A stretch of DNA of 64,000 bases from Promethearchaeota archaeon (GTDB taxonomy: Archaea; Asgardarchaeota; Lokiarchaeia; Sigyniarchaeales; SOKP01). The notes under the pieces were generated by a model. It saw only the letters and a list, made by a program, of their open reading frames with translations. It had not been told where the DNA came from and did no database searches. Below are positions 607 through 16,670 of the stretch, in pieces. Where the stretch lies: the NCBI GenBank assembly GCA_011364925.1, contig RDOA01000012.1:18254-82253 (forward strand), given 5' to 3'. The position numbers were made by a program, and so were the translations under genes. Position 1 is the stretch's first letter; each line of letters begins with the position of its first letter.

Positions 607-1917
607 CTAAATACTAAGTTTAATCTGCCCATAGGTTCCACCTCCCCCGGGAGTGTATTCTATTTTATCTTGCCTTATTGCTTCTATAACAAATCCAACT
701 CTTTCGTCGTATTTTTTGATATCTTCAATTGGAACGTTTAATATAATATCAAATTCTGTTCCTAGTTTTTCAATTATATTATTATATGCGTTCATCACGG
801 TTGTACTTGAAGCACTTTTAATATTTTTAACAGAACGAATGATATCTATTAATGGTACAGCGTTTATATAAGACGGTCGATGTTCGGGGTGAATAGGCAC
901 TCTTGATGTAGAAATCACTTCAATTCTCTCACTTACTCCTAATTTAATCTTAACATTTTTTGTAAATTTTTCCTTGCAAGCAGGACAGGTCATTCTTTCT
1001 TTAGCGACATTTTCGATATATTCTTGTTTAGATTTAATAGGATCGTTTGTAATGATTTTAATAAACTCGTCTGATATTGCGTATTGATTAAAAAGAGAAT
1101 TGCCTTGTTTTGCAGTCTTTTTGAATAATATTCTTCTTCTACATTTATTGCAGAACATATTGTAATATTTTCCTAACTTAGGGTGAAGTCCTACATTTAA
1201 ATTAACTTTACGTCTACTTTTTCCCTCAATCGCTAAAACTACCTCTTCAAAAGAGGGATTTTCCATAGTAAGTCTGTTAAATTCTCTACCTAAGGATCTA
1301 GGACTTTCAGAATGAGCATCACTATTACTTAAGAATGTGATATGTTTAAGACAATCTAACCTATCTGCTAAATCTGTATTAGCGGATAATCCTAACTCTA
1401 AAAAGCTCACTTTTTTTGTAGCATCTTGATAACATTCTTCAAGTGTTTTGAATTTATTTTGACGAAATATAGCTTTAAATGGTGTAAAAGCGTGTGCGGG
1501 TCCAATAATCGCTCCATAATCGGTGATTATATCCACAAGCTCGGCCGGACTTAAGTTTACTCTTGGACGACCTCCCCATTCATCCAAGATATTTTTTGAA
1601 TAAGAACTAATCTTTTTTTGAACATCTCTTACCGAAGAAAAATTGGGAAAGAAAACTACTTGATGAACGCTTTCTTGGTCTTCAATTTCAGTTTGTAAGA
1701 TGAAATATACACCTTTATACGAAAGTGATCCGTCATTTTCCTTTATCAAGTTTTTTTCTAAATATTTTAACCAATTTGGTTGTAATACATCTCCGGTTCC
1801 AAGGATATCAAGTCCTTTTTTCTTACATGTTTCAACCATTGTATCTAAATTTAAATTTTTTGATACTGCTATTGAATGAGGAGAATGGATATGTAAATCA
1901 GAATTGAAAGACTCCAT
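607..1917 (-). CDS. endonuclease Q family / PHP-domain protein with Zn ribbon (TIGR00375-like)
   Basis: DLHIHS, GTGD, PAHAFTP, ELGLSA, NSDAHS, LGREFN, CxxC...CPAC, PGGGGTYG motifs. Confidence 0.85.
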   Translation of the reverse strand: MESFNSDLHIHSPHSIAVSKNLNLDTMVETCKKKGLDILGTGDVLQPNWLKYLEKNLIKENDGSLSYKGVYFILQTEIEDQESVHQVVFFPNFSSVRDVQKKISSYSKNILDEWGGRPRVNLSPAELVDIITDYGAIIGPAHAFTPFKAIFRQNKFKTLEECYQDATKKVSFLELGLSANTDLADRLDCLKHITFLSNSDAHSESPRSLGREFNRLTMENPSFEEVVLAIEGKSRRKVNLNVGLHPKLGKYYNMFCNKCRRRILFKKTAKQGNSLFNQYAISDEFIKIITNDPIKSKQEYIENVAKERMTCPACKEKFTKNVKIKLGVSERIEVISTSRVPIHPEHRPSYINAVPLIDIIRSVKNIKSASSTTVMNAYNNIIEKLGTEFDIILNVPIEDIKKYDERVGFVIEAIRQDKIEYTPGGGGTYGQIKLSI

Positions 1918-1941
1918 CAGTTCATCAAAAAATTCAATCCA

Positions 1942-3015
1942 TTAAATACCATTTGCTTTTAATTTAGACCCTAGCTCAATCCATTCTTTAGCTTTGTCAA
2001 TATTTCCTAACTTCTCATGGCAACGCGCCGCTGATTCCCAAAAATCTACTTCTGAAGGGTCGAGAGAAACAACTTTATCGAAGTGAATCAATGCTTTTTT
2101 ATAATTATTTTTTACATCGCAATATATCTTCCCTAATTTCTTAAGAGCATTTATATTATCTGGATCCATTTTCAGAGTATTTTGATAATAAAAAATAGCC
2201 TTATCGTAATCATGTAACGCGTTATAACTGAATGCTAAATTTTCGTATAGCACCGGATCTTCCTCTTGGAGTTTTAAGGCTTCCTTATAACAGTTTATTG
2301 ATTTTTCATAGTCTTCTTTAAAGGTATAAGAAAGACCAAGATTATTCCAAGCTTCAATGAAGGTAGGGTCGATTTCTGTCGCTTTTTTATACGAATCAAT
2401 AGCTAAATCGTAGTTGTTTGTCTCATACGCAACGTCTCCTAAATCAAACCACAATTCAGCATTATTAGGGTCAAGATCGATGGCTTTTTTATAATACTTT
2501 ATTGCTTCATCATAGTTCTGAGTATCGTAATATATTATGGCAAGATTGTTATGGAGAAGAAGCTCATCCGGATTAATCTTTAAAGCTTTTTTATAGCAAT
2601 TTATAGCTTCTTCATACTGTTCCTTGTCTCTGTAGATTAAAGCAATATTATTCCAAACATCTGTATAGCTTGGTTCGTATTCTAAGGCGATTTTGTAATA
2701 TTTTAATGCATTATCATGATCTTCTAAATCTTCGTATGCAAATCCCATGTTATAGTAAGCAACTGCATCATCAGGGTCTATTTCAATTGCTTTTTGATAG
2801 CATTTTATTGCTTCTTCATATTGGCGTAGCATGCTAAATGAGAGTCCAAGATTATTCCACACTTCTGAAAAATAGGGGTTGATTTCTATAGCCCTTTCAT
2901 AAGCTTCTATTGCTTCCTCAAATGCGTTTTCATCGTAATACGCATCTGCTAAATTGATCCACGCATCAACATCATTAGGATCTAATTCTGCTGACTTTTT
3001 GTATCTCTCAATCAT
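1942..3015 (-). CDS. tetratricopeptide repeat protein
   Basis: about ten 34-aa repeats (WNNLG...YEEAIKCYQKAIEIDP). Confidence 0.95.
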   Translation of the reverse strand: MIERYKKSAELDPNDVDAWINLADAYYDENAFEEAIEAYERAIEINPYFSEVWNNLGLSFSMLRQYEEAIKCYQKAIEIDPDDAVAYYNMGFAYEDLEDHDNALKYYKIALEYEPSYTDVWNNIALIYRDKEQYEEAINCYKKALKINPDELLLHNNLAIIYYDTQNYDEAIKYYKKAIDLDPNNAELWFDLGDVAYETNNYDLAIDSYKKATEIDPTFIEAWNNLGLSYTFKEDYEKSINCYKEALKLQEEDPVLYENLAFSYNALHDYDKAIFYYQNTLKMDPDNINALKKLGKIYCDVKNNYKKALIHFDKVVSLDPSEVDFWESAARCHEKLGNIDKAKEWIELGSKLKANGI

Positions 3016-3086
3016 TTTAAAATCAGATAATCTATAGAAAAATAAAGTTTGATTACTATTATTTTTTTTGGATTTTTAAAATATTT

Positions 3087-4133
3087 TTAATTACTAGCAA
3101 TAACTATCATTTTATCATGAATTTGGTCTGTCAACAATATTCTCAGATGGGGTTCATCAGTTTTAAATCTTACTTCTTCTAACTTACCCTCAACGAGTAC
3201 AGACTCGCCTTCAATTGCCTGTTCACAAAACCTTCCTCGAAAAGAGCTAACTTCACTTATGTTATCTAATTTGATACTTTTTCCAATAATTTTGCTTTCT
3301 AGCACTTTTACACAGCTAATTTCATATGAACAGGGAGTAAAGATTGAATTGGTTGAATCTATTAGATTTGCTTTTACTTTAATCCTTCCTAGATTTTTGA
3401 ATTGATAATCGTAGTATGTTCCCTTCCAGTCATTAGGATCTTTTATATACCTGATAAAGAAATCGATTCCATGGTATTTTCCTTGATGTAACTTCCTTTT
3501 TTCACTCTTTAAAAAACTCTCGAAACTAATGTTAGAACCTCCTACCCTCCATTTATAGTGGTCTTTATATTCAGATAAGTTGTAGGATCTACAATCGTTT
3601 GGAGTGAGAAGAATTTGTTTTAACTTATCTTGAAACTCTAAAATATTATGAGTTCCATATATCATTATATCTATATCAGAATCAGCCAAACCCAATCCAA
3701 TCATTGGTGATCCAGAAATTCCAATTGCATCTTCTGGTATTGATCCGTCTGTAATTAATAATTTACAAAGATTTCTGGAATGAAGCTCCAGTTTTGTTAA
3801 TTCTTTTTTCAAATTAAGCAATTTATAATATTCTTTGGGAGTGTATATTTTCTCTATATCTCCATTTTTTACGCCCTGAACTCTTAAATCAAGTTCCTTT
3901 GAAAAAAAAATAAATTGAGGGTATTTTTCTTCGAGTTTCAAATATCTTTCGTCCAATGAATAGATTTTTCTATATTTTCTGCCTTCCTTTATTCGTTCAC
4001 CATTCTGATCGGGAACAAACCTTAAAAAACAAATTTTGCGATCTCGAGGATGGTGATAACCTTTTATATCAAAAAACAAATGGTCATCTTTGGTTTCGAG
4101 GTAATCCCCTTCAATTCCTTTTGGAATGTTCAT
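3087..4133 (-). CDS. predicted nucleotidyltransferase-domain protein (archaeal COG1665-like)
   Basis: GISGS...SDIDIMIYG pol-beta-type NTase motif; N-terminal KGYHHP...LRFVP; C-terminal OB-like region. Confidence 0.7.
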   Translation of the reverse strand: MNIPKGIEGDYLETKDDHLFFDIKGYHHPRDRKICFLRFVPDQNGERIKEGRKYRKIYSLDERYLKLEEKYPQFIFFSKELDLRVQGVKNGDIEKIYTPKEYYKLLNLKKELTKLELHSRNLCKLLITDGSIPEDAIGISGSPMIGLGLADSDIDIMIYGTHNILEFQDKLKQILLTPNDCRSYNLSEYKDHYKWRVGGSNISFESFLKSEKRKLHQGKYHGIDFFIRYIKDPNDWKGTYYDYQFKNLGRIKVKANLIDSTNSIFTPCSYEISCVKVLESKIIGKSIKLDNISEVSSFRGRFCEQAIEGESVLVEGKLEEVRFKTDEPHLRILLTDQIHDKMIVIASN

Positions 4134-4153: not shown

Positions 4154-5257
4154 TTAATATTTTGAAGGTGTCTTCGATTTTATTTGATACTTGGGAATTT
4201 CTTTTATTTTTTGTAATTCTCTTTCAAACTCTTTTTTCTCTTTAAGAAATCTCTCCTTATCACTATCTAACTTTTGCCTTTCTTTTCTTATTGAAATCTT
4301 CTCATCTTCTATTTTTGATTTTTCTTTTTCTATATTTTTTATGTCATCGTTTAATTTTTTCAATTTCTTTTCTGAATTCTGAATTTTATGTTCTAATGAA
4401 TAATAAGCGTCTTCTGCTTGAGGCACCTTTCTGTCTAATTCTTTCAGTCGAGCTTCTTGCCCTTTTTTCTTACGTTCTAGTTCTCTAACATCATTATCAA
4501 CATTTTCTTTAAATTTTCCTAGTTTTTCTTTCTTTTTCTCAATATCGCGGGCTTTAAGGTTCAAATTTTGTTTCTTGTATCGAACTTTTTCTTTTTCATC
4601 TTTTAACCTTCTTTTTTCATCTTCAATTCGATTTTTTTCATCTGTGATTTCTCTTTTCAAATTATTAATTTCTTTGTTTAAATTATCCCGTTCTCTTGTT
4701 AAGTTTTTAACTTCGTTTCTTAAGTCCATTAAATTGTTTTCTAACTTTTCAATTGTTCTTTCTAATGCGTCTTCTCTCCGTTCCATTCCAGGTAATTTCG
4801 TTTTTATTTCTTTAATTCTTTCTTTTGCTTTTGCTTTTTCTTTTTCTATATTTCTCTTTTCGTTCTCTAGTTCTTCCCTAATGCCATCTAACTTCTCTTG
4901 ATATCGCTCTAAATCAGCAGTTTTCTGATCTAGCTCTCTCTCTTTCGCATGTAGTTCGTTTTTACTACTGTTTATTTCGTTTCTCATTCTATCTAATTCC
5001 AATTTTAAGTCCTCGTATTGCTTTTGAAGTTCTCTGACTTCAAGTTCTTTTTGTTTTCTTTTTTTTTCTAATTCTTCAATATTTTCGTTATATCCGTCAA
5101 TTTTATTGATTACTCGCTCCCATTCATTCTTCTCCTTATTCAATTTAATTCTTTCTTCTTTAATTTTTTTAAGAAGCTTCCCATCAACGCTTTTATCTAA
5201 CTCTTCCTCAGGAGTTTTTTCTCGGATTTGATACTTTGGAATTGGTTTTTCCTTCAT
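4154..5257 (-). CDS. long coiled-coil protein with IPKYQIxxKTP motif at both termini
   Basis: K/E-rich heptads throughout; N-terminal KPIPKYQIREKTP and C-terminal KEIPKYQIKSKTPSKY. Confidence 0.8.
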   Translation of the reverse strand: MKEKPIPKYQIREKTPEEELDKSVDGKLLKKIKEERIKLNKEKNEWERVINKIDGYNENIEELEKKRKQKELEVRELQKQYEDLKLELDRMRNEINSSKNELHAKERELDQKTADLERYQEKLDGIREELENEKRNIEKEKAKAKERIKEIKTKLPGMERREDALERTIEKLENNLMDLRNEVKNLTRERDNLNKEINNLKREITDEKNRIEDEKRRLKDEKEKVRYKKQNLNLKARDIEKKKEKLGKFKENVDNDVRELERKKKGQEARLKELDRKVPQAEDAYYSLEHKIQNSEKKLKKLNDDIKNIEKEKSKIEDEKISIRKERQKLDSDKERFLKEKKEFERELQKIKEIPKYQIKSKTPSKY

Positions 5258-5437
5258 GCCATTTCTTTAACTCATATTACCTAATATTATTAATATATTG
5301 ATTCGAATTCTAAAGTGTTTGTAATTTCTTTTAAAGAGGATTTTTGATTTAGTCAATTTTATTTAAATAGCTTAATTTCCATTATTTTCTTAAATATAAT
5401 TTAAATGTACTTAATCTAAATTCATGGTGTTAATCTA

Positions 5438-5839
5438 ATGGATTTTGACGAGGAATTTGATAAGGAGTTCGACGAAGAATTGGAGGAGGATTTTGACGAA
5501 AACTTAGATGAAGATTTTGACGAACCTACTTCAAAAACTCCTCCTGACGATGTTAAAGTTAAGACTCCAGAACCTCATCTCCCTCCTGAAGGAAAAAAGA
5601 TATCTGTATTTTTTCTTTCTACTATTGGTCCGGGAGAAAAAAAACAAAAATTACTAGTATATACTGGTAATAAAGTTGGAGACATTAAAGATACTGTGGC
5701 AAATTTGTTTGCGCTAGATCCATCCGATTTCCATTTGTCTTCAGGAGGAGTGACAATGGATGAGACATCTTACCTAAGCGATTATAATGTAGATGAAGGA
5801 GATGACATATTATTAATTCCTGCTAGCGTAGCAGGTTGA
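5438..5839 (+). CDS. ubiquitin-like protein with acidic N-terminal extension, ending in an exposed Gly (Ubl-A)
   Basis: beta-grasp pattern (VGDIKDTV...GVTMDETSYLSDYNVDEGDDILLI) ending PASVAG-stop; about 70% identical to the 7692..8024 domain. Confidence 0.85.
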   Translation: MDFDEEFDKEFDEELEEDFDENLDEDFDEPTSKTPPDDVKVKTPEPHLPPEGKKISVFFLSTIGPGEKKQKLLVYTGNKVGDIKDTVANLFALDPSDFHLSSGGVTMDETSYLSDYNVDEGDDILLIPASVAG

Positions 5840-5880
5840 GAACTAAGAAAGATATAAAAATCTTAAATTATTTTTTCATT

Positions 5881-6669
5881 CTATTTTTTTCTCGATGGTA
5901 TTAACGCGATCTCGTCATCGTCGTCAATAGAATAATCCCTTATCTGCTTTGATTCGTCTAACAATATCCCACCGGTGGATAGGAGAAAATCTTCTAAAGC
6001 ATAATCAAATAGAATTCCGACTTGTTCCTTGAGGATATTTACTAATTCTGAAGTTTCAATAACGATTATTTTGGTTTTCTCGCCAGGTTCGACTAATGAT
6101 CTTACATAAACGCGAATCTTATCATCCATTCCAATAGTGGTCAGTGGTGGGTTGTACTGCACTTTTTCATTAGTTCTTTCCTTATATTGCAAGATATCTT
6201 TAATTAACCGTTTTCTTTCGCTAGGTTCAAAATATAGCATTTCTCTGATAAAAAAGATTTTATCCATCTTTGATAACCCTAGCAAATCAATTTTGTCTAA
6301 TTCTTCTCTATTGAACAATGTAAAAATGTAATCGTCGAAGGTCTCAATTTTTTCAAAAGTTTCATCGCTATCTGCATATTGATCTACTAATGGCATAGCT
6401 TCGAAGTAATCTTCGATTAGTTCGCTTGTAGTTCTATGTATTGGATTTAACTTTTTAGCGTATTTATCTTTTTTTATCTTTTTAGCGGGACTACCCGTAG
6501 AAGATACAACGGTATAGATCGTGCCCGTTGACAATACCGCAACGCTCCCAACAGTTAGAAAGAGGAATAGAGGTAAACTTTCTATCTGCATTAAGAAAAA
6601 AATCAAATAGAGTATTGCAAAAACAATGTAAAGAGTTAAAATACTTAGAATTCTAAATTTTTTTTTCAT
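5881..6669 (-). CDS. membrane-anchored protein with C-terminal ubiquitin-like domain lacking terminal Gly
   Basis: two N-terminal hydrophobic helices; C-terminal PGEK...LSTGGILLDESKQIRDYSIDDDDEIALIPSRKK aligns to the two Ubls. Confidence 0.8.
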   Translation of the reverse strand: MKKKFRILSILTLYIVFAILYLIFFLMQIESLPLFLFLTVGSVAVLSTGTIYTVVSSTGSPAKKIKKDKYAKKLNPIHRTTSELIEDYFEAMPLVDQYADSDETFEKIETFDDYIFTLFNREELDKIDLLGLSKMDKIFFIREMLYFEPSERKRLIKDILQYKERTNEKVQYNPPLTTIGMDDKIRVYVRSLVEPGEKTKIIVIETSELVNILKEQVGILFDYALEDFLLSTGGILLDESKQIRDYSIDDDDEIALIPSRKK

Positions 6670-6747
6670 GGTTTTTTGGCGAATCTATTCTCTAAATTTA
6701 TGATTTAAATGGTATCTAATAAATCGCATTGGTATAACTTTGTAATT

Positions 6748-7422
6748 TTATATATCATAAGGAACTGATTTTCTAATATTCTCATATCTCTTGGAGTCTA
6801 ATTTATATAAATCTCTTTTTTTATCTTTTTCAATTGATATTAATTTTAAATTCATTAAAATTTCAAGATATTTTTTAATTGTATTGTAATTACCTTTTAG
6901 GATAGAAGCTATTTCAGTAATTTTCAAAGAATTATCTTCACTCTTTAATAGATTTATAATCTCACGAACGATTTCTTGCTTTAAATAATAATATATCTCG
7001 TCTAAATCTGGATCTGAATCGTAATCAAAAATAATTCTTTGATTCTCTATTTTCTTCGACCGTGTAAATCTGAACTTTTCTAAACATGATAAATGCCATA
7101 ACGCTTGATTACTTCCAATATTTATTGCTTTCATTATTTCATTTACATTGGATGGAGTCTTTCGGATATAATTATAAATTTCATTTCGGATTGGATGTTC
7201 AATAATGTTATTTTTCATTAATCTAGTTCCAGGGATTAGAATTCTTTTTTTAATAAGGTTTTTAATAAAGATTTCGATACTATTTCTGTTCAATTCAGGA
7301 TTAGCTCTTACCCTATTATTGATGAACACCACGATATCTTCGACAGAAAAGAACGGTTTCTTTTTTAAATATTCCTCTATTAGACCACAGACAATAGATT
7401 GAAGGCTATCAGGCTTGCTCAT
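6748..7422 (-). CDS. winged helix-turn-helix transcriptional regulator (tandem wHTH, ArsR-like)
   Basis: IRNEIYNYI...WHLSCLEK and ITEIASIL..NYNTIKKYLEIL HTH motifs; divergent from the Ubl-E1-E2 operon. Confidence 0.75.
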   Translation of the reverse strand: MSKPDSLQSIVCGLIEEYLKKKPFFSVEDIVVFINNRVRANPELNRNSIEIFIKNLIKKRILIPGTRLMKNNIIEHPIRNEIYNYIRKTPSNVNEIMKAINIGSNQALWHLSCLEKFRFTRSKKIENQRIIFDYDSDPDLDEIYYYLKQEIVREIINLLKSEDNSLKITEIASILKGNYNTIKKYLEILMNLKLISIEKDKKRDLYKLDSKRYENIRKSVPYDI

Positions 7423-7691
7423 AAGCTTATTGTTTTAATGTGTTGAATTATACGATTTTTATAATCAAATCTTCTCTCTAAAAGGATATTTTTCAATTTA
7501 TATATATTGATAAACAATCATTTAATTTATAAGTATATTAAACTAGGCATTTTAATCTTAATGAATACATTTTTTACATATAACTTAAAAATCTTCAAAA
7601 TCATTCCAATCGGTTTTTTAACTCAATATTTTCACCATTAATATAAGTCTAAAAAAAAACTTAAACTAAAAAAACCAAGGAAGCGATTTGA

Positions 7692-8024
7692 ATGAGTTTT
7701 GAAGAAGATTTTGATGAGGAATTAGAACCAGTTAAATCTAAAACCCCATCAAGTAAAACACCCTCAACAGGTAAGAAGTTGACTTTATATTTTATGTCAA
7801 CTATTGGTCCTGGTGAAAAGAAGGAGAAGTTAACTGTCAATGATGCAAATCGGGTAAGTGATATTAAACAGACATTAGGAAATCTATTCGGTCTTGATCC
7901 AGATGAATTTCACTTATCATCTGGAGGTGTTACAATGGATGAGAATAGTCAATTAAAAGATTATAATGTCAATGACGGCGACGACATTCTTTTGATTCCA
8001 GCAAGTACTGCGGGATTAAATTAA
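7692..8024 (+). CDS. ubiquitin-like protein precursor with acidic N-terminal tail (Ubl-B)
   Basis: beta-grasp pattern ending IPASTAG-LN; first gene of the Ubl-E1-E2-JAB-RING run. Confidence 0.88.
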   Translation: MSFEEDFDEELEPVKSKTPSSKTPSTGKKLTLYFMSTIGPGEKKEKLTVNDANRVSDIKQTLGNLFGLDPDEFHLSSGGVTMDENSQLKDYNVNDGDDILLIPASTAGLN

Positions 8025-8057
8025 ATTTATATATCATTCTTTTCATAAAATTAATAA

Positions 8058-8092
8058 AAGGGCTTTAAGCCCTTCAATTTTTTTATTTTTTT
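8058..8092 (+). terminator. hairpin plus T-tract between Ubl-B and E1
   Basis: AAGGGCT-tta-AGCCCTT stem followed by two T7 runs. Confidence 0.5.
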
Positions 8093-8103
8093 GAACAATA
8101 TTA

Positions 8104-9339
8104 ATGGTGATAATATTGCATAAGGATTCAGATTTTTTTGCAAAGGGATTGTCAGAAGAAGAGAGAGACTTATACGATCGTCAATTTCGTTTAGAAGGAT
8201 GGTCCCAAAAATTAGTAAAAAAATCGAGAGTTTTAATCGCGGGAGTAGGAGGGTTAGGATGTGAAATTGCTAAGAATTTAGCTATGTTAGGGGTAGGCCA
8301 TATAGATCTCGTGGATCTAGATATCATCGAACACTCTAACTTAAACCGCCAAGTTCTGTTTGCAGGCGCAAAGCTGGGAGAACCGAAAGCAATTGCGGCT
8401 GCAAAAAAGTTAGCTGAAATTAATCCTAATATTATTGTTAATGGATACCATTCATCGTTAGAACGATTAGAGCCCTCTCTCTACTATAATGCTGATGTTG
8501 TTATAGGGGGACTTGATTCAATGAATGCGAGATTAAATTTAAACGCTCAATGTATTAGATTTAGGAAACCATTAGTAGATGGAGGGGTTTCTGGCTATTA
8601 TGGACATGTATATACAATATTCCCATATCGGAATGCATGTTATGAATGCAATCCGCTGCCAGATGTGGCAAGTGATGAAATGGCAGCTTGTACCGTAGTT
8701 GGTATCCCTCGAAAAAGAATTCATTGCGTTTTTAAAGGAGATATGGCCTTCAAAGAAAAATTTGATAGAGATCCGAATCCTAAAAATGTAGAAGAGATAA
8801 GGTTTATTCAAAAAGTTGCAAATGAACTTGTTACAAAACACAATTTCTTTCCTGAATATACAGAAGATGATATTGTAAAAATTATTGATCGCCATGATCC
8901 AGGAATTATAACAATAAACGCAACAATATCAGCTTTACAATCTCACGAAGCGATTAAAATCCTTCATTGGAAAAACGGTCATAAAGGATTAGGTGAACCA
9001 ATTATAAATTATATGATATTTAATGCTATGACAATGAAATTATACCACATTGAAAAGAAGAGAAATCCAGAATGTTCTCAATGTGGTAAAAATGTGAGAC
9101 GCGTTGTAATTAAAATGAGAGAAAACTCTCCATGCATGAATATAATTAAAATATTACAAAAAAATGGATACAAATTAGAATCGGAATTTGAACCAGTATT
9201 AACTCTTTTGGATTTTAACGATATAATTGTTCTAGATTTAGAGCAAAATCCAATTCAAAATGGTTTGAGGATTTACGAATTTCTCACGGTTGCGGGGTTT
9301 GAAGGAGGAGAAATATACGTAACCTTAAAATTTAAATAA
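8104..9339 (+). CDS. ubiquitin-activating enzyme E1 (ThiF family, UBA3/SAE2-like)
   Basis: YDRQ, GVGGLGCE, D..E.SNLNRQ, CYEC, catalytic ACTVVGIPRKRIHC, CSQC, C-terminal extension. Confidence 0.92.
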   Translation: MVIILHKDSDFFAKGLSEEERDLYDRQFRLEGWSQKLVKKSRVLIAGVGGLGCEIAKNLAMLGVGHIDLVDLDIIEHSNLNRQVLFAGAKLGEPKAIAAAKKLAEINPNIIVNGYHSSLERLEPSLYYNADVVIGGLDSMNARLNLNAQCIRFRKPLVDGGVSGYYGHVYTIFPYRNACYECNPLPDVASDEMAACTVVGIPRKRIHCVFKGDMAFKEKFDRDPNPKNVEEIRFIQKVANELVTKHNFFPEYTEDDIVKIIDRHDPGIITINATISALQSHEAIKILHWKNGHKGLGEPIINYMIFNAMTMKLYHIEKKRNPECSQCGKNVRRVVIKMRENSPCMNIIKILQKNGYKLESEFEPVLTLLDFNDIIVLDLEQNPIQNGLRIYEFLTVAGFEGGEIYVTLKFK

Positions 9340-9405
9340 ATAATTTATCCAAAATATAAATCTAATAAAAAATTATAAAAAAAAACAAAAAACGGGGTTA
9401 AAGAT

Positions 9406-9933
9406 ATGAGTATAAGAAGTAGTCGAGTCTCTCGAGATTTTGCGGGACTTAAAAGATTGCTAAAGGAAGGTACCATCATCCAATTAAAGCCATTTAATCC
9501 AAAAAAAAAGAGTATTGATCACTTAGCTTTAACGGTTAAAGGTCCTAAAGGAACAGCTTACGCAGGAGGATTGTTCAGATTGGAAATGAAGTTTCCTGTT
9601 CAGTACCCTAAACAACCTCCTTTTGTGAGATTGCACACTCCTATTTGGCATCCAAATTTTTGGCCAAAACCTAATGAATATAAAGGACAAAGAAATATTT
9701 GCTTAGCGTTAGTAGATCCGTCTCTAGTGGGGACAAAAGGTGGATGGAGCCCTTCGAAAACAGCTGTTACAGTTGTTCAAGCAATCATTGCTATGCTCAA
9801 CACGCGAGGTAAGTATGTCAATCCAACTGATGTGTTTAATAAAAAAGCAGCGATAGAAATGATAAAGGATCCTAAAATGTTTGAAAAGAAAGTGAAAAGC
9901 TTAACTAAGAAATACGCTAAGGATAAATGGTGA
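9406..9933 (+). CDS. ubiquitin-conjugating enzyme E2
   Basis: GPKGTAYAGGLF, FPVQYPKQPP, IWHPN, ICL (catalytic Cys), WSP. Confidence 0.95.
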   Translation: MSIRSSRVSRDFAGLKRLLKEGTIIQLKPFNPKKKSIDHLALTVKGPKGTAYAGGLFRLEMKFPVQYPKQPPFVRLHTPIWHPNFWPKPNEYKGQRNICLALVDPSLVGTKGGWSPSKTAVTVVQAIIAMLNTRGKYVNPTDVFNKKAAIEMIKDPKMFEKKVKSLTKKYAKDKW

Positions 9934-9940
9934 TTATGGA

Positions 9941-10750
9941 ATGGGCATTGACGAAAATAATTCTAGTTCCATTAGAGATGCGATAAAACAGAGAATTAAA
10001 GAGAAAATTAAAAAAGAACTCCTCGAAGAAGTGTACACTGAATTACAATTAGAAGAATTACAAGAAGAAATAACCGCTGAATTTATCGATGTAAAACCGA
10101 TAAATCACTCTAAATATATCAAAGCTAACCTTGAACCAATTCCAATGGAACCCGTAGTAGAAACTGTGGCTAGAAGCGATAAAATTGAAGCGACTATAAC
10201 AATCACGATAAAAGCAGTTCTTAAAATCGCCAGTCATTCTCTCAAATATGCGCATTCAAAAATACCTAGAGAACAATGGGTAGAAGTAATTGGCTTACTC
10301 GCTGGAAAGTATAATGAGTCTAACGGAATATTACATATTGAAGATGCTTATCCAATGGGGCATGGTACAGCGGTGTATGCTGAAATAAAGGATTATAAGA
10401 ATTATGTTAGAGCTTTTAAAGATATCAAGAAAAAAAAGGGCTTATTCATAGCAGGATGGTATCATAGCCACCCAAGTTATAGTTGCTTTATGTCAAGGGA
10501 AGATTTAAGCACACAGGCTAGATATCAAAAGCTTTGGGACAAAGCCGTTGCACTCGTAATCGATCCATTTTTAATTAACGGAAGATCAGTTGGATTTGAA
10601 ATTTACCGCGCAAATTTTAAAACAAAGAAATGGTTTTCAGTGCCTTTTGAAATTAAAGGGCATTTAGATATTCGCATGTTACCGGAGATTATAGAATTCA
10701 TGAATCCGATAATAGAAGGGAAACCAGCCTATTTAGAATATGATGAGTAA
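9941..10750 (+). CDS. JAB1/MPN+ (JAMM) metalloprotease, CSN5/Rpn11-like
   Basis: EVIGLL and GWYHSHPSYSCFMSREDLSTQ, ALVIDP. Confidence 0.93.
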   Translation: MGIDENNSSSIRDAIKQRIKEKIKKELLEEVYTELQLEELQEEITAEFIDVKPINHSKYIKANLEPIPMEPVVETVARSDKIEATITITIKAVLKIASHSLKYAHSKIPREQWVEVIGLLAGKYNESNGILHIEDAYPMGHGTAVYAEIKDYKNYVRAFKDIKKKKGLFIAGWYHSHPSYSCFMSREDLSTQARYQKLWDKAVALVIDPFLINGRSVGFEIYRANFKTKKWFSVPFEIKGHLDIRMLPEIIEFMNPIIEGKPAYLEYDE

Positions 10751-10782
10751 AGAAAATAAGTTAATATTGTGATGTTTAAACC

Positions 10783-11904
10783 ATGGTTAAAAATAAAACC
10801 TTAACAATCATTTTTGCTATTTTTTTAGTTATTGGGGTAATTCATGGTTTAATCTCTCTTTCTTTTTTAAATTTTGCAACCTGGGTTTTAATAGGATTAT
10901 GGGTAATATTTACAATAAAATTATATGTAAACATAAAACGGCACCGTGAGTTTAATTCGCCACATAATACTGCATTTTTTGTCATTATTCCGTTAACTAT
11001 TGGAATATTTTACTCAATTTGGGGCTATTATACAGGAATTCTAGGAGAAAATTTACTCGGTGGAGTATATTTTAGTCTATGGAGCTTAATTTTTGCTTTT
11101 CCTTTTGTGATCTATGGATCCTACTCATTATATCGATGTTTCAAGAAATACAATGTAATATATTTTGGGACCAAAGCTGTGAAAGCCCGAAAATTGGGAT
11201 ACATTCTTTCTTTTTCAGTTCTTATTTTTATTTTGATTTATTGGATAAGTTTTTATAGCGCAATTGAGAGTTTTCCGTTGGATTTGAATCTCTTAATACT
11301 ATTTATAGCTACAATTTTAGTCGTAATAATATTTGGTTTTACTAATTCTCGTCCATCATTACCTACTTTAACACGCGATTATATTGCAAATCGTACTAGA
11401 ACAATAAACAATTTAACTACGCCTACAACACAACGACAGCGTTTACGGACTACAAGAGTAACCGCTCCTACTCCATCTACTAGAGCAACAACACAAACTT
11501 CAAGATCGAGAACTCATTCGTCAAGAATAACCCCTACATCACATAGACAAACTACAAGAACTAAAACAACAAAAGTTACACACACAACTACTGTTAAACC
11601 TACTTCCAAAATTCGGAATATTAATAATTATAAACCCAGAGCATCGTATTTGTCATTAGAAGATTTTAAGTGTATCTTTTGTTTTAAGCTACCAAAACTT
11701 CCTGATGACAAGGGTCGAGGAGTGGTTATATGTCCAAATTGCAGATATCCCTCCCATGCGGATGAATTCAAAGATTGGATGCGCACTTCAAATCTTTGTT
11801 CGCGTTGTAGTGCTCCTATTCCTACCAGCTTTAGGCGTAATCCCAGTATAGTAAGTGTAAAGAACTACATTATTGCTTATAAACAATTGTTAAAACGCAA
11901 ATAA
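10783..11904 (+). CDS. multi-pass membrane protein with C-terminal RING-variant domain (putative E3 ligase)
   Basis: about 6 hydrophobic helices, Thr/Arg/Ser-rich linker, C-x2-C-x16-C-x2-C-x4-H-x2-E-x3-W-x6-C-x2-C. Confidence 0.75.
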   Translation: MVKNKTLTIIFAIFLVIGVIHGLISLSFLNFATWVLIGLWVIFTIKLYVNIKRHREFNSPHNTAFFVIIPLTIGIFYSIWGYYTGILGENLLGGVYFSLWSLIFAFPFVIYGSYSLYRCFKKYNVIYFGTKAVKARKLGYILSFSVLIFILIYWISFYSAIESFPLDLNLLILFIATILVVIIFGFTNSRPSLPTLTRDYIANRTRTINNLTTPTTQRQRLRTTRVTAPTPSTRATTQTSRSRTHSSRITPTSHRQTTRTKTTKVTHTTTVKPTSKIRNINNYKPRASYLSLEDFKCIFCFKLPKLPDDKGRGVVICPNCRYPSHADEFKDWMRTSNLCSRCSAPIPTSFRRNPSIVSVKNYIIAYKQLLKRK

Positions 11905-12012: not shown

Positions 12013-12573
12013 ATGAATAAAGAAAGCGTACAAGAACTAATCACACAACTTATTAAGGAGATTGAAGGGAATGAGGGAGAATTACGCCCTGCCACGAAAG
12101 AAACTCCAAGACGAGTAGCCAATGCGTATAGCGAAATATTTGATGGCTATCGAACAGACATAGACAAGGAAGTGAAAGTCTTTAAAGCAAACTATAGCGA
12201 GATTATTGTATCTAAAGATATTAAGTTTTATAGCATGTGCGAGCACCATATTCTCCCTTTCTACGGTACTGTTGACATTATATATATGCCAGGCGAGTAT
12301 CTTTTAGGAATTTCAAAATTCGCACGAGTAGTTAATTATTTTTCTCATAGATTAAATGTTCAAGAAAAGATGACAGATGACATTGCAAATTATTTAATGA
12401 CCTGTTCGTTAAAACCAAGAGGAGTGATGGTTATAGTCAAAGGTACTCATTTATGCGAGATAATGAGGGGTGTAAAGCAGTCTAATCCTTTAATAATAAC
12501 ATCTGCTATAAAGGGAATATTTAAAACTAACCTTGCTACGAGATCAGAAGCGTTGGAACTATTAAATTTATAA
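12013..12573 (+). CDS. folE: GTP cyclohydrolase I (type IA)
   Basis: ETPRRVA, SMCEHHILPF, GISKFAR, VQE, HLCEIMRGV. Confidence 0.95.
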   Translation: MNKESVQELITQLIKEIEGNEGELRPATKETPRRVANAYSEIFDGYRTDIDKEVKVFKANYSEIIVSKDIKFYSMCEHHILPFYGTVDIIYMPGEYLLGISKFARVVNYFSHRLNVQEKMTDDIANYLMTCSLKPRGVMVIVKGTHLCEIMRGVKQSNPLIITSAIKGIFKTNLATRSEALELLNL

Positions 12574-12640
12574 CCCTAAACATATTATTACTGACAATAG
12601 TTATTTTTTTATCAAAATCATAAAAATTTTTGTGTGGGTT

Positions 12641-13813
12641 ATGTCCAAAACCTTCATACATAGTAATTACGGTTTGATTGGAGTCGGCTTAGAATTTAAA
12701 AAGAACATCACAGTCGAAGTTAATGAAGATGGAATAATTAATAATCTTTCTTATGATGATGTAAGAGAAGATATCAATATTTCGTCGAAACATCCTACTT
12801 TTTTATTAATACCTGGTTTGATTAATTCTCATATTCATATTTGTGACAGTTTTGCTAAAGAACAAGGTTTTAATAAAAATTTAATAGAAGTTGTCGCCCC
12901 TCCTAATGGGATTAAACATAAATTGCTAGAAAATACTTCAGAAGCGATCAAAGTACAAGGAATAAAAGAAGCAGTTAAGGATATGTTAGCTAATGGCATA
13001 ACTCTGTTCGTAGATTTTAGAGAAAATGGAATAATTGGCGTTAACATATTAAAAGATGCTTTAGAAAATTCACCAATTAATTGCATTATTTTAGGAAGAT
13101 TCAAAAATCTTGAAGAAGCAGAGGTTATTATAAAAAAAGCTAATGGAATTGGATTTGCAAGTTATGATCAGCTTTCTCAAGATCATAAAAATATAATAAT
13201 TGGATTAAAAAATAAATATAGAAGCAAGATTATTGCTTGTCACGATGCAGAGTTATCACGGAACGAGTTACTATTGAAGGATATAATAAGAGATGGAATA
13301 ATTGATGTTGTTATTCACGGGACGCACTATACGATGGAAGATTTAAAAAAGATTAAGGAAAACCATATAATGTTAGTTTTATGCCCAAGATGTAATGGTT
13401 ATTTTGGGTGTGGTTTTCCACCTATTAAGGAATTATGCTATCTAGAAATCCCTGTTAGTCTTGGAACAGATAATGTAATGGCAAATAACATTGATTTATT
13501 TGAAGAGATGCGTTATTTATATAGGATTTTCCGTGTATTGGCTGCTAATAAAAGTAAGAATATTTTAACATCAAAAGAGCTGTTAAAAATGGTAACTATT
13601 AATGCTGCAAAAAACTTTGGTCTGTTAGAGAAATTTGGTTCTATTTCAGTGGGAAAATATGCGGATTTTTCTCTATTAAGCCTTTCTGATTCAAATTATT
13701 ATTCACATGAGTTTGATAGTGAAAATATTTATAACATAATTGTTCAAAGAACAAGGGCAGAGAATATAAAAAGGACTTATATTAAAGGTGAGGTAGTATC
13801 TGAAAGAAAGTGA
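12641..13813 (+). CDS. metal-dependent amidohydrolase / deaminase family protein
   Basis: PGLINSHIHICD, CPR.N, LGTDN, T.NAAK, GSISVGKYAD; ATG at 12641 preferred over GTG 12632. Confidence 0.85.
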   Translation: MSKTFIHSNYGLIGVGLEFKKNITVEVNEDGIINNLSYDDVREDINISSKHPTFLLIPGLINSHIHICDSFAKEQGFNKNLIEVVAPPNGIKHKLLENTSEAIKVQGIKEAVKDMLANGITLFVDFRENGIIGVNILKDALENSPINCIILGRFKNLEEAEVIIKKANGIGFASYDQLSQDHKNIIIGLKNKYRSKIIACHDAELSRNELLLKDIIRDGIIDVVIHGTHYTMEDLKKIKENHIMLVLCPRCNGYFGCGFPPIKELCYLEIPVSLGTDNVMANNIDLFEEMRYLYRIFRVLAANKSKNILTSKELLKMVTINAAKNFGLLEKFGSISVGKYADFSLLSLSDSNYYSHEFDSENIYNIIVQRTRAENIKRTYIKGEVVSERK

Positions 13814-14471
13814 ACATCCTTATGTGATTTTAAGTGCTGCTATGACAATTGATGGAAAAATTGCATCAAAAAATGGAGATCCAGAAATTTCTGATGAAGA
13901 GGATTGGAAATCTGTTCATAAACTTCGAACAGAGGTGGATGCGATTATGGTTGGTAAAGGATCCATACTGAAAGATAATCCCAAATTACATATAAAATAT
14001 TACGATCATAACGGGTACTATCGTATTGTATTGGATAGCAATCTTTCCATTCCAATTGATTCGAATATTATTACCTATGAACCCGATACTTATCCAACTA
14101 TTATAGTAACAACCGAAAACGCTCCTGTTGATCGAATTAGGGAATTTGAAGCAAAAAATGTAATTATTATTAAGTCTGGAAGTGGGAATGAAGTTGATAT
14201 TGTTAAATTGATGCCCATTTTATACGGAAAAGGCATAAAGAGGATCCTTTTAGAAGGTGGGGCCAGATTAAATTGGAGTTTTATCAAAAATCATTTAGTA
14301 GACGAAATTAGAATCACAATAGGACCCTGGATGGTAGGGGGTAAGGATGCCTTGAGTTTAGTGGAAGGAGAGGGTTTCGCAAAAATGTGTGAAAGCCCAA
14401 GATATTGCTTATCAAATGTGAAGAAGAACAATAACTATATAACTCTTTATTATAAGAAAGAAAAACCATGA
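13800..14471 (+). CDS. arfC: 2,5-diamino-6-ribosylamino-4(3H)-pyrimidinone 5'-phosphate reductase (RibD C-terminal family)
   Basis: HPYVILSAAMTIDGKIA, HKLR..DAIMVG, LLEGGA; start placed at CTG 13800 behind GGTGAGG (ORF track begins at GTG 13824). Confidence 0.85.
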   Translation: MKESEHPYVILSAAMTIDGKIASKNGDPEISDEEDWKSVHKLRTEVDAIMVGKGSILKDNPKLHIKYYDHNGYYRIVLDSNLSIPIDSNIITYEPDTYPTIIVTTENAPVDRIREFEAKNVIIIKSGSGNEVDIVKLMPILYGKGIKRILLEGGARLNWSFIKNHLVDEIRITIGPWMVGGKDALSLVEGEGFAKMCESPRYCLSNVKKNNNYITLYYKKEKP

Positions 14472-15595
14472 AAACCACTAAAGAAATAGAACAATTGGAA
14501 AAGATACCAATAAAAGCGCTGAAAGAAAAAATTAAAAGTATAAGAGAAGAACTTCCTAAAGAAGAACAGAATATTGTTACTTTTTCTAAGAACTTTACAC
14601 TTTCTCTTTCAAACTATTGTCAAAATCAATGTGGATACTGTTTCTATAACCAGCATGTATCTAAAGAGATTCTAGAACAGTATATTGCACTAATTGAAGA
14701 AAATAAAATTAATGATTTAATCCAAGCAGCAATAAAATTTGGATGCACAGAAGCTTTACTAATGTCTGGTGAATCTCCTGATAAGTTCGAAGTAGTTCAA
14801 AAAGAATTGGAAAAAAGAAACTATAGCAATTTCAACCAATTTGTGAAAAGATTAAGCGAAAAGTTGTTAGAATTCAATCTTTTACCCCATACAAATATAG
14901 GTGCGCTCTCATTCGATGAATTAAAATATTTAAAGGATACAAATGCTAGTATGGGTTTAATGATTGAGAGTACCTGTGAAACTCTTTCCAAACCTGGTGG
15001 TGTTCATGAAAATTCACCAAATAAAACGCCAGAAACTAGAATTAAACACATTATAGACGCGGGAAAGTTAAAGATTCCCTTTACTACAGGCTTATTATTA
15101 GGAATTGGTGAGAGATTTCAAGATCGCATAAAGGATTTGTACTTAATCAAAGAACTTCATCAAAAATATGGTCACATCCAAGAAGTAATAATACAAAATT
15201 TTACAGAAAAATCGAGGATTCCCTATCATCCGAAAAAACCAATAAATATAGAAGAAACTCTCAAAACTGCGGGTGTTGCAAAATTAATATTTGAAAACGA
15301 TATAGCGATTCAAGTTCCTCCTAATTTAATTCAAAATTACGAAAAGGAAGCTTTAGAAATGGGAATTGATGATTTTGGAGGCATATCTCCATTTACTATA
15401 GATTATATTAACCCCCACCACGCTTGGCCAAAAATACCACTCTTAGAAAAGTTATGCATGAGTTTTGGATATGAACTTAAGGAAAGGCTTCCTATATATA
15501 AGAAATTTATAGATAAAAACGGATTTTGTTCTGAAATTATTAAAAAAACGATAAAAAGGATTGATCTGAATGTTAGAAGCGAAAAAGATTCTTAG
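14468..15595 (+). CDS. cofG: FO synthase subunit CofG (radical SAM)
   Basis: VTFSKN, CQNQCGYC, ASMGLMIE, IPFTTGLLLGIGE, HIQEVIIQNF, IQVPPNL, DDFGGISP. Confidence 0.92.
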   Translation: MKTTKEIEQLEKIPIKALKEKIKSIREELPKEEQNIVTFSKNFTLSLSNYCQNQCGYCFYNQHVSKEILEQYIALIEENKINDLIQAAIKFGCTEALLMSGESPDKFEVVQKELEKRNYSNFNQFVKRLSEKLLEFNLLPHTNIGALSFDELKYLKDTNASMGLMIESTCETLSKPGGVHENSPNKTPETRIKHIIDAGKLKIPFTTGLLLGIGERFQDRIKDLYLIKELHQKYGHIQEVIIQNFTEKSRIPYHPKKPINIEETLKTAGVAKLIFENDIAIQVPPNLIQNYEKEALEMGIDDFGGISPFTIDYINPHHAWPKIPLLEKLCMSFGYELKERLPIYKKFIDKNGFCSEIIKKTIKRIDLNVRSEKDS

Positions 15596-16670
15596 AAAAG
15601 CTGAAGATTCAGTTGAGATTAGCCCGGATGAAGCTTTAATCCTATTAAAAATCACGGGTAAAGATTTCACAGCTTTACAACAGACTGCTGATCAGATTTG
15701 TTTTGAGAAGAAGAATAATCTCGTAAGTTTTATCATAAATCGAAATATAAATTTTACAAATGTCTGTTATCAAGGATGTAAATTCTGCTCGTTTTCTGTT
15801 TCAAATAAAAATAAAGACAGTTTTTTAAAAACTATTGAAGAAATAAGAGAGGATGTTACTGAAGCTAAGAACGCAGAATGCACTGAAGTATGCATCCAAG
15901 GAGGGATTAATCCAGAATTAGATTTCGACTATTATTTAGAGATTTTGAAAATAGTAAAGGAGATTGATTCAAATATCCATACTCACGCTTTTTCTCCTCA
16001 AGAAGTGTTCTATATGTCAAAATTATACGGCTCATCGATTTATGATGTGTTAAAGGAGTTAAAAAAAGCAGGTTTAGATTCTATGCCAGGAACAGCAGCA
16101 GAAATTTTAGTAGATGATATCAGAAAAGTTATTTGTCCAAATAAAATTACCACTTCTCAATGGATTGATGTGATAAAATCAGCACATGAATTAGGAATCC
16201 CCACTACTTCGACTATGATGTATGGTCACATTGAAGATTTAAAGGACAGAATAGAACACCTCGAGATTTTAAGGAATATACAGAAAGAAACTTCCGGGTT
16301 CACCGAATTTGTCCCTCTACCCTTTGTTAAAGAAAATCCTCTTTTATCTAAATTGACAGATTTCCCTCTAAAACCTAGCTATGGAATGGCAGATTTAAAA
16401 TTGTTTGCGGTAGCAAGAATTTTCCTCAACAATTACATTGATAATATTCAATGTTCTTGGGTAAAGTTGGGCCCAAAATTCGCTCAAGTTTCTCTATATT
16501 ACGGAGTAAACGACTTTTCTGGTACGTTAATGGAAGAGAACATTTCAAAAAGCGCAGGAGCCGAATTTGGAGAATATTTAGCTCCGGAAGAGATGATCTC
16601 TATCATTAAAGCTGCCGGCAAGAAACCTGTGCAGAGGGATACGCTCTATAAATTATTAAAATTCTACTGA
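15570..16670 (+). CDS. cofH: FO synthase subunit CofH (radical SAM)
   Basis: NRNINFTNVCYQGCKFC, SMPGTAAEIL, TMMYGHIE, NIQCSWVKLG, GTLMEENIS; adjacent to cofG. Confidence 0.92.
   Translation: MLEAKKILRKAEDSVEISPDEALILLKITGKDFTALQQTADQICFEKKNNLVSFIINRNINFTNVCYQGCKFCSFSVSNKNKDSFLKTIEEIREDVTEAKNAECTEVCIQGGINPELDFDYYLEILKIVKEIDSNIHTHAFSPQEVFYMSKLYGSSIYDVLKELKKAGLDSMPGTAAEILVDDIRKVICPNKITTSQWIDVIKSAHELGIPTTSTMMYGHIEDLKDRIEHLEILRNIQKETSGFTEFVPLPFVKENPLLSKLTDFPLKPSYGMADLKLFAVARIFLNNYIDNIQCSWVKLGPKFAQVSLYYGVNDFSGTLMEENISKSAGAEFGEYLAPEEMISIIKAAGKKPVQRDTLYKLLKFY

Follow-up and report, generated by a model that had tools for sequence, protein, structure and literature searches.

This study concerns a gene cluster for a ubiquitin-like (Ubl) conjugation system in a 64,000-nucleotide stretch of a Lokiarchaeia genome (Promethearchaeota archaeon, contig RDOA01000012.1, positions 18,254 to 82,253; here called the window), whose closest homologues are found mostly in the Promethearchaeota (Lokiarchaeia). 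Five genes encode a modifier (Ubl-B), an activating enzyme (E1), a conjugating enzyme (E2), a JAMM protease and a RING protein with transmembrane helices (TM-RING, a candidate ligase or E3), and a divergent gene encodes a coiled-coil protein. On balance, our analysis favours the explanation that they constitute a second, dedicated Ubl conjugation pathway beside the Gly-Gly (GG) type of ubiquitin, with ligation at the membrane and the lysine of a short shared motif as the acceptor. A functional and separate pathway is considered very likely and its ligation at the membrane likely, and we lean towards the motif lysine as the acceptor. The features which carry this explanation are as follows (window positions).

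7692-8024, plus strand: Ubl-B, the core modifier, with an acidic N-terminal tail carrying KTP motifs, a ubiquitin fold and the end IPxSTAG followed by a two-residue propeptide.
7731-7748, plus strand: V-x-x-K-T-P motif in the Ubl-B tail, with a candidate chain-forming lysine.
8104-9339, plus strand: E1, single-chain and UBA3-like, with GxGxxG, zinc cysteines 179/182/324/327, catalytic Cys196 and Tyr170 invariant.
9406-9933, plus strand: E2, with HPN, Cys99, an invariant loop-4 YP and loop-7 WxP, and a family-specific insertion ahead of the Cys.
9941-10750, plus strand: JAMM protease, Rpn11/CSN5-like, with E115, H175, H177, S185 and D188 invariant.
10783-11904, plus strand: TM-RING, the E3 candidate, with six transmembrane helices (about 4-186), a disordered T/R/S linker and a RING-fold domain (C297-C342).
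4154-5257, minus strand: coiled-coil protein of 367 amino acids, divergent from the Ubl, a candidate substrate or scaffold, seen only alongside the Ubl system.
4166-4183, minus strand: C-terminal I-x-x-K-T-P motif of the coiled coil, K362 and P364 invariant.
5210-5227, minus strand: N-terminal I-x-x-K-T-P motif of the coiled coil, K14 and P16 at least 90% conserved.

All five core genes lie on the plus strand, with intergenic gaps of 79, 66, 7 and 32 nucleotides (nt). The co-directional run from Ubl-B to TM-RING at 7692-11904, as drawn in the preliminary description of this locus, was confirmed, and all nine open reading frames lie where it had put them. The Pfam matches of the window proteins were ThiF (4e-58), UQ_con (7e-25), JAB (2e-15) and HTH_5. 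Pfam ubiquitin was matched above the cut-off by Ubl-B and under it by Ubl-A and TM-Ubl, two further Ubl proteins of the window described below.

The system was surveyed in 400 Asgard genomes, and 49 sampled loci (Loki, Hel, Hod, Heimdall and Borr) were read for gene content. The Ubl was found in 194 of the 400 genomes and the orthologous E2 in 181, both confined to the same 12 families and absent from the other 21. All five core genes occur together in 46 of the 49 loci; among 110 loci with both E1 and E2, the Ubl is present in 110, the JAMM protease in 105 and the RING protein in 99. In Heimdallarchaeaceae the core is rearranged as two adjacent blocks. Since the same core recurs across 12 Asgard families, the five-gene association is not due to chance. 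Among the names on the E2 clusters are L. ossiferum, Sigynarchaeum, Helarchaeota, Hodarchaeales, Heimdallarchaeaceae and Borrarchaeum. The system is present in the cultured Ca. Lokiarchaeum ossiferum (Ubl NEF87_002996, E2 NEF87_002994, TM-RING NEF87_002992). Moreover, the whole set is lost jointly while the GG system stays, which supports the distinct pathway proposed earlier: in four Lokiarchaeia genomes, two of them single-contig, the Ubl, E1, E2, TM-RING and coiled coil are all without a match at orthologue level, and the same four keep GG-type ubiquitin together with a second E1 and E2. In the window genome, GG ubiquitin lies on another contig (C22:12682-12933) and has 17% identity to this Ubl; GG ubiquitin was likewise found elsewhere in each of five Heimdallarchaeial and Borrarchaeum-type genomes checked. 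Other contigs of the window genome (G000) carry a second JAMM-E1 pair (C65:1-1160) and a second E2 (C41:1-498), and in one further genome (G147, locus L201) the second E1 and second E2 are two genes apart.

The modifier is ubiquitin-like in sequence and fold. Pfam ubiquitin was matched by all 49 aligned members, and the predicted structure of Ubl-B (predicted local distance difference test, pLDDT, 90) has the ubiquitin fold of archaeal Ub-E1-E2-RING-JAMM systems, ISG15, ubiquitin and UBL domains being the best matches (Z 13-14, root-mean-square deviation, rmsd, 1.2-2.3 over 74-77 residues). The C-terminal signature is IPxSxAG. All 195 distinct free modifiers end in Ala-Gly followed by 0-7 residues, 129 of them stopping at the Gly, and none of the 195 has the C-terminal Gly-Gly of canonical Asgard and Caldiarchaeum ubiquitin. 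The modifiers had previously been described as 'single-Gly'; one terminal Gly is indeed present, and the description is refined by the finding of Ala-Gly in place of ubiquitin G75-G76 (a register extended from the alignment pairing I102 with ubiquitin V70). Poly-Ubl precursors, an archaeal analogue of polyubiquitin genes, were seen with three (P0195, L181:59-1177, found in two assemblies) or two (P0196) Ala-Gly units head to tail. Because the Ala-Gly ends are universal and the poly-Ubl units are joined directly after the Gly, this Gly is probably the processed and activated end. HerA-type ATPase, vWA, Roadblock/LC7 and CxxC-bearing proteins also occur with this Ubl as a C-terminal fusion, the Ala-Gly end often being intact (L064:1910-3718, L068:10072-11814, L059:9691-11448, L094:7583-8506, L050:11703-13658, L054:13770-14660, L061:7557-8237), and such Ala-Gly-ended fusions may render whole enzymes conjugatable. 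In the Ubl tree (82 columns) shallow clades alone were resolved, and the Ubl has been duplicated independently in other lineages.

A single-piece alignment was obtained between the E1 and UBA3, the E1 subunit for NEDD8 (1e-52), UBA1 and UBA2 being nearly as good, in comparison to 3e-26 for UBA5 and 7e-15 for ATG7, which is among the weakest matches. Across 34 homologues of the E1 there is no variation in the nucleotide loop, in Cys196 or in the four cysteines for zinc, and its invariant Tyr170 is aligned with the UBA3 specificity Arg, presumably the gate of NEDD8 specificity. The E2 is a canonical UBC protein at about equal distance to Ubc13, UBE2T and UBE2B, and its HPN, Cys99 and RING-binding loops are invariant in the alignment. 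The JAMM protease is nearest to the Caldiarchaeum Rpn11 (CsRpn11), followed by Rpn11 and CSN5, and has an intact metal site. The residues characteristic of archaeal systems (E1 Cys, E2 HPN and Cys, JAMM E..HxH..S..D) are invariant in the three alignments. Tyr170 of E1 and a sensitivity of JAMM to the penultimate residue would be plausible means of insulation from GG ubiquitin; in CsRpn11, cleavage is slowed by a penultimate Gly-to-Ala change (PMC6043591). Related archaeal cascades are active in vitro (PMC5654768; 10.1101/2023.07.25.550441).

TM-RING contains six hydrophobic helices and a C-terminal domain which matches RING/U-box structures (Z 7.6 and 7.1, with many RING rows among the matches); no relevant Pfam match was obtained for this protein. 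Seven Cys/His zinc ligands are invariant and the sixth position is Glu328, and the E2-contacting residues I298 and W332 are kept. The usual linchpin site, immediately behind the last Cys, holds no Arg; R341, between the last two Cys, is invariant instead. The RING-fold E3 of archaeal systems is represented here by the fold match, with seven Cys/His and a Glu as ligands, and it is not the small soluble RING of Asgard and Caldiarchaeum ubiquitin systems, as six transmembrane helices precede it. The helices and the fold match support the polytopic E3 that had been put forward for this locus; both ends of the protein, and with them the RING, are probably cytoplasmic, as the loop charges fit the positive-inside rule. 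For the transmembrane domain, Foldseek, VIA-align, Atlas features and Atlas structure gave no usable match beyond its own archaeal cluster, which is not proof of a new fold; its comparison with HRD1 gave Z 6.0 (rmsd 4.5, 111 residues) at rank 35 among generic helical bundles. A stand-alone paralogue of this domain, with no Pfam match, is seen 3' of the TM-RING gene in many Heimdallarchaeial loci (L074:3310-3894, L078:9640-10218, L071:3168-3743). At L055:8634-9302, a RING and linker protein without transmembrane helices follows a free Ubl beside a pair of winged helix-turn-helix (wHTH) and TM-Ubl genes, at a distance from the main operon.

The coiled coil is a core part of the system, and its earlier proposal as a linked candidate substrate has held up. 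Throughout Lokiarchaeia and in Borrarchaeum-type loci, its gene and that of the Ubl are arranged head to head; the coiled coil is missing wherever the Ubl system is missing and, with motif-rich equivalents included, is present in 39 of the 49 loci. The protein is a low-complexity rod with 28% mean column identity, in which K362 and P364 are two of three invariant residues. I-x-x-K-T-P was found at both ends of 33 of 34 coiled-coil homologues, with 0 after shuffling, and is often tandemly expanded; T is often replaced (K, V, I, R, Q, H) and K and P are fixed. KTP is also present in the tail of 173 of 187 free Ubls, where the tail lysine is 87% conserved. In Heimdallarchaeial loci there is no rod, and Lys/Pro-rich neighbours are found instead, 13 of which contain 56 motifs against 5.8 expected. 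The whole proteome has eight strict matches, four in this locus, to a pattern defined after seeing them. In SUMO, chains are formed through a tail lysine that lies within the substrate consensus. The present arrangement is SUMO-like because the modifier and an unrelated neighbour share a lysine-centred motif, and a disordered N-terminal tail with a lysine motif shared with the substrate is found at the sequence level. A complex model of the coiled-coil tail with E2, Ubl and RING scored 0.43 against 0.00 for the best of 3 controls, on a mark reached by 58 of 80 solved and 2 of 110 mismatched pairs and, at 0.60 or below, by 7 of those 80 and both mismatches; its runs agree in at least 82% of contacts, with partner pLDDT of at least 58. 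The model lends weak support to an association of the coiled-coil tail with E2, Ubl and RING. An OST3/OST6-family membrane protein (L200:539-1075), which occurs in 24 of 24 Lokiarchaeia genomes searched and has, close to the N-terminus, a KTP-like segment whose presence does not follow that of the system, was considered as a second substrate and rejected: of 15 genomes with the system, 3 have Arg at the Lys position, and genomes without the system retain K-x-P.

The remaining features of the locus are given below.

5438-5839, plus strand: Ubl-A, a family-level duplicate that ends at Ala-Gly without a propeptide and has a long acidic tail with a KTP motif.
5881-6669, minus strand: TM-Ubl, a protein with two transmembrane helices and a C-terminal Ubl domain without terminal Gly, lineage-specific.
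6748-7422, minus strand: wHTH, an ArsR-like multi-wHTH protein that has paralogues in other parts of the genome, lineage-specific and travelling with TM-Ubl.
8057-8075, no strand assigned: hairpin followed by a T-run between Ubl-B and E1, a possible attenuator, weak (6 found against 3.8 expected).

Ubl-A and Ubl-B share 67% identity, and the TM-Ubl domain has 35-39% with either. The acidic tail of Ubl-A (window 5440-5524) consists of 12-nt repeats with Phe at every fourth residue. The preliminary description had taken wHTH, membrane Ubl and second Ubl as general parts of the system. They are a lineage-specific addition: wHTH and TM-Ubl occur in 8 of the 49 loci, in three genera of the window's family, with Ubl-A beside them. 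Hence conserved linkage of the flanking genes, set beforehand as a test, was found for the coiled coil or its motif-rich equivalent and not for the wHTH and membrane Ubl genes. As the terminal Gly is missing in 116 of 116 TM-Ubl homologues, TM-Ubl is not conjugatable; at a guess, it is a membrane-bound decoy or adaptor for the enzymes. [quoted passage not shown] In one genome (G189), a block of wHTH, TM-Ubl and coiled coil with a truncated E1 (L037:8920-9330, L036) lies ~100 kb from a complete Ubl-E1-E2-JAMM-RING block, and a third, lone Ubl is at L038. The left flank (window 607-4133) encodes phosphoesterase-like, TPR and nucleotidyltransferase-like proteins, and the right flank (window 12013-16670) has genes resembling folE, amidohydrolase, ribD, cofG and cofH, all named by eye from sequence; both flanks accompany the locus in close genera only.

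Beyond the observed genes, residues, folds, linkage, joint loss and motif conservation, we infer a scheme of chemistry, membrane topology, acceptor role and chains in which JAMM would trim the modifier to its Ala-Gly end, the UBA3-like E1 would adenylate it and then bind it as a thioester on Cys196, and the E2 would accept it on Cys99. The six-helix RING ligase would position the transfer on the membrane's inner face. The acceptor would be the lysine of I/V-x-x-K-(T)-P, which is present on both rod ends, many times in the Heimdallarchaeial stand-ins and on the modifier tail; the outcome would be SUMO-style motif-directed modification with tail-linked chains, and JAMM would later take the modifier off its targets. 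A rod-shaped scaffold anchored or cross-linked at the membrane would fit this anatomy better than bulk degradation. It is also possible, as a tentative extension, that a SUMO-like, sequence-coded second modifier pathway was already present in the Asgard lineage, Hodarchaeales included. At the membrane, it would build tail-linked chains either on multivalent disordered scaffolds or on the two ends of a bivalent rod of ~50 nm, and whole enzymes would be attached through C-terminal Ala-Gly Ubl fusions.

Several points weigh against a second pathway of this kind. The genomes are related, hence the locus counts are not independent. TM-RING has a Glu at a zinc-ligand position and lacks the usual linchpin Arg. 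The motif-bearing protein was not found in 10 of the 49 loci, some of which end at contig edges, KTP is no longer present in second Ubl paralogues of Hodarchaeales and others, and the only further membrane protein of the genome that has the motif showed no substrate-like behaviour. K-T-P could also be a binding or phosphorylation site. If so, the pathway would be real and separate, and the coiled coil would be a scaffold or adaptor instead of a substrate. T is the commonest residue at its motif position, T-P is the usual site of proline-directed kinases, and the complex model is weak and gives no interface; however, T often gives way to K, V, I, R, Q or H, with K and P being fixed, which fits a functional lysine better than a phosphosite, and a docking or phosphorylation site is considered unlikely. 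A quality-control ligase as in endoplasmic-reticulum-associated degradation (ERAD), whose six-helix domain selects membrane proteins to be tagged for extraction and proteasomal degradation, appears decidedly unlikely. An N-terminal multi-helix region followed by a C-terminal cytoplasmic RING is the HRD1/gp78 layout, and the stand-alone paralogue after the ligase in many Heimdallarchaeial loci is in its favour. Yet the transmembrane domain has no clear structural match, HRD1 being found at rank 35, genes for the proteasome, Cdc48 or Derlin were not encountered in the loci read, and the conserved soluble motif protein would be left unexplained.

An archaeal ancestor of UFMylation, with the Ubl as the Asgard UFM1, is very unlikely. 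The single terminal Gly stands in an IP-x4-G spacing which presumably resembles that of UFM1, and the Ufm1 cluster scored 0.80 at rank 14 by language-model features, which is the chance level. Asgard Ufm1 homologues, which may or may not be this family, have been reported from structure models (PMC12962969). On the other hand, Pfam ubiquitin matches all aligned members and Ufm1 was not among the 25 families listed; Pfam Ufm1 (PF03671) matched none of the 400 Asgard genomes, although this model finds no Asgard protein and is blind to the reported structural homologues. The top 50 fold rows are ubiquitin, ISG15, UBL and SUMO chains. The UFM1 identity was rejected on these grounds, the absence of UFM1 from the top 50 fold matches not being an exclusion. 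Further, instead of a UBA5-type E1, a UFC1-type E2 and a UFL1/DDRGK1 E3, the locus has a UBA3-like E1, a canonical UBC E2, a RING E3 and a JAMM protease, and its wHTH matches ArsR-type models only. The specific kinship to UFMylation or ERAD suggested earlier was not borne out, as the Ubl is ubiquitin-like, the enzymes are of these types and there is no clear match to HRD1. Only a slight probability is given to an ordinary ubiquitin operon with a modifier interchangeable with GG ubiquitin and shared enzymes. All its enzymes are of the canonical ubiquitin type, and published surveys count it as the Lokiarchaeal Ub region and its E2 among ubiquitin E2s (PMC9192718); against this stand the low identity to GG ubiquitin, the loss of the entire set together, the presence of another E1 and E2 that are linked in one genome, the invariant Tyr in place of the UBA3 specificity Arg and the slowing of CsRpn11 by a penultimate Ala (PMC6043591). 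Attachment to a membrane lipid, as for ATG8, would agree with a single terminal Gly and a membrane-embedded ligase, but it is scarcely probable in view of the weak ATG7 match, the ubiquitin-type fold, the RING E3 and the conserved lysine motif.

The dedicated second pathway bears on the question of how the insulated pathways that eukaryotes run in parallel (ubiquitin, NEDD8, SUMO, UFM1) came from one ancestral ubiquitin system, and of when ligases embedded in the membrane arose. Our analysis suggests that Asgard archaea already ran two separable Ubl pathways in one cell. The locus offers a native candidate substrate with a predicted acceptor residue, which is mostly lacking for archaeal systems, and the pathway is amenable to tests with soluble proteins. 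If a sequence-coded, SUMO-like Asgard pathway is true, parallel Ubl pathways and polytopic E3 ligases predate eukaryotes. Spang et al. 2015 are said to have described this cluster in Lokiarchaeum GC14_75. Ub-E1-E2-RING-JAMM clusters are known in Asgard archaea, with a discrete Ub region in Lokiarchaeota and this E2 aligned as a ubiquitin E2 (PMC9192718). In the literature searched, which left most subscription journals outside, no description was found of an Ala-Gly Asgard family apart from GG ubiquitin, of the polytopic ligase, of the joint loss or of the motif.

In comparison with known systems, TM-RING shares an N-terminal transmembrane bundle and a C-terminal cytoplasmic RING with HRD1/gp78, whereas homology of the transmembrane domain is not demonstrable and the RING ligand pattern is different. 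The UFM1 pathway is similar in one terminal Gly with similar spacing and in membrane association, whereas the E1, E2, E3 and protease here are of other classes and there is no sequence match to Ufm1. With SUMO, the proposed model shares a disordered N-terminal tail with an acceptor-like lysine motif that is also on the substrate, and a short propeptide. In place of the Gly-Gly end, psi-K-x-E consensus and Ulp protease of SUMO, however, there are an Ala-Gly end, I-x-x-K-x-P and JAMM, with a single-chain E1 and an E2 that is not Ubc9-like among its top matches. The ESCRT-linked Asgard GG ubiquitin (Lokiarch_37670, HeimAB125_14240, Hel cascade; PMC9192718, 10.1101/2023.07.25.550441) has in common the genomes, the ubiquitin fold and the E1-E2-RING chemistry, but belongs to another family, lies on another contig in the window genome and survives the loss of this locus; no ESCRT genes were recognised in the loci read. 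The Lokiarchaeal Ub used by Hatano et al. (PMC9192718) is likewise a different, Gly-Gly protein, the one which the window genome has on its other contig. The Caldiarchaeum subterraneum system (PMC5654768, PMC6043591) has the same five classes in one cluster, a UBA3-like E1, an Rpn11-like JAMM, the loop-4 and loop-7 motifs of the E2, and the Ile and Trp of the RING. The present system differs from it in the Ala-Gly end, the long acidic KTP tail, the co-inherited motif-bearing partner and the six-helix RING, in which one ligand position is Glu and the canonical linchpin is missing.

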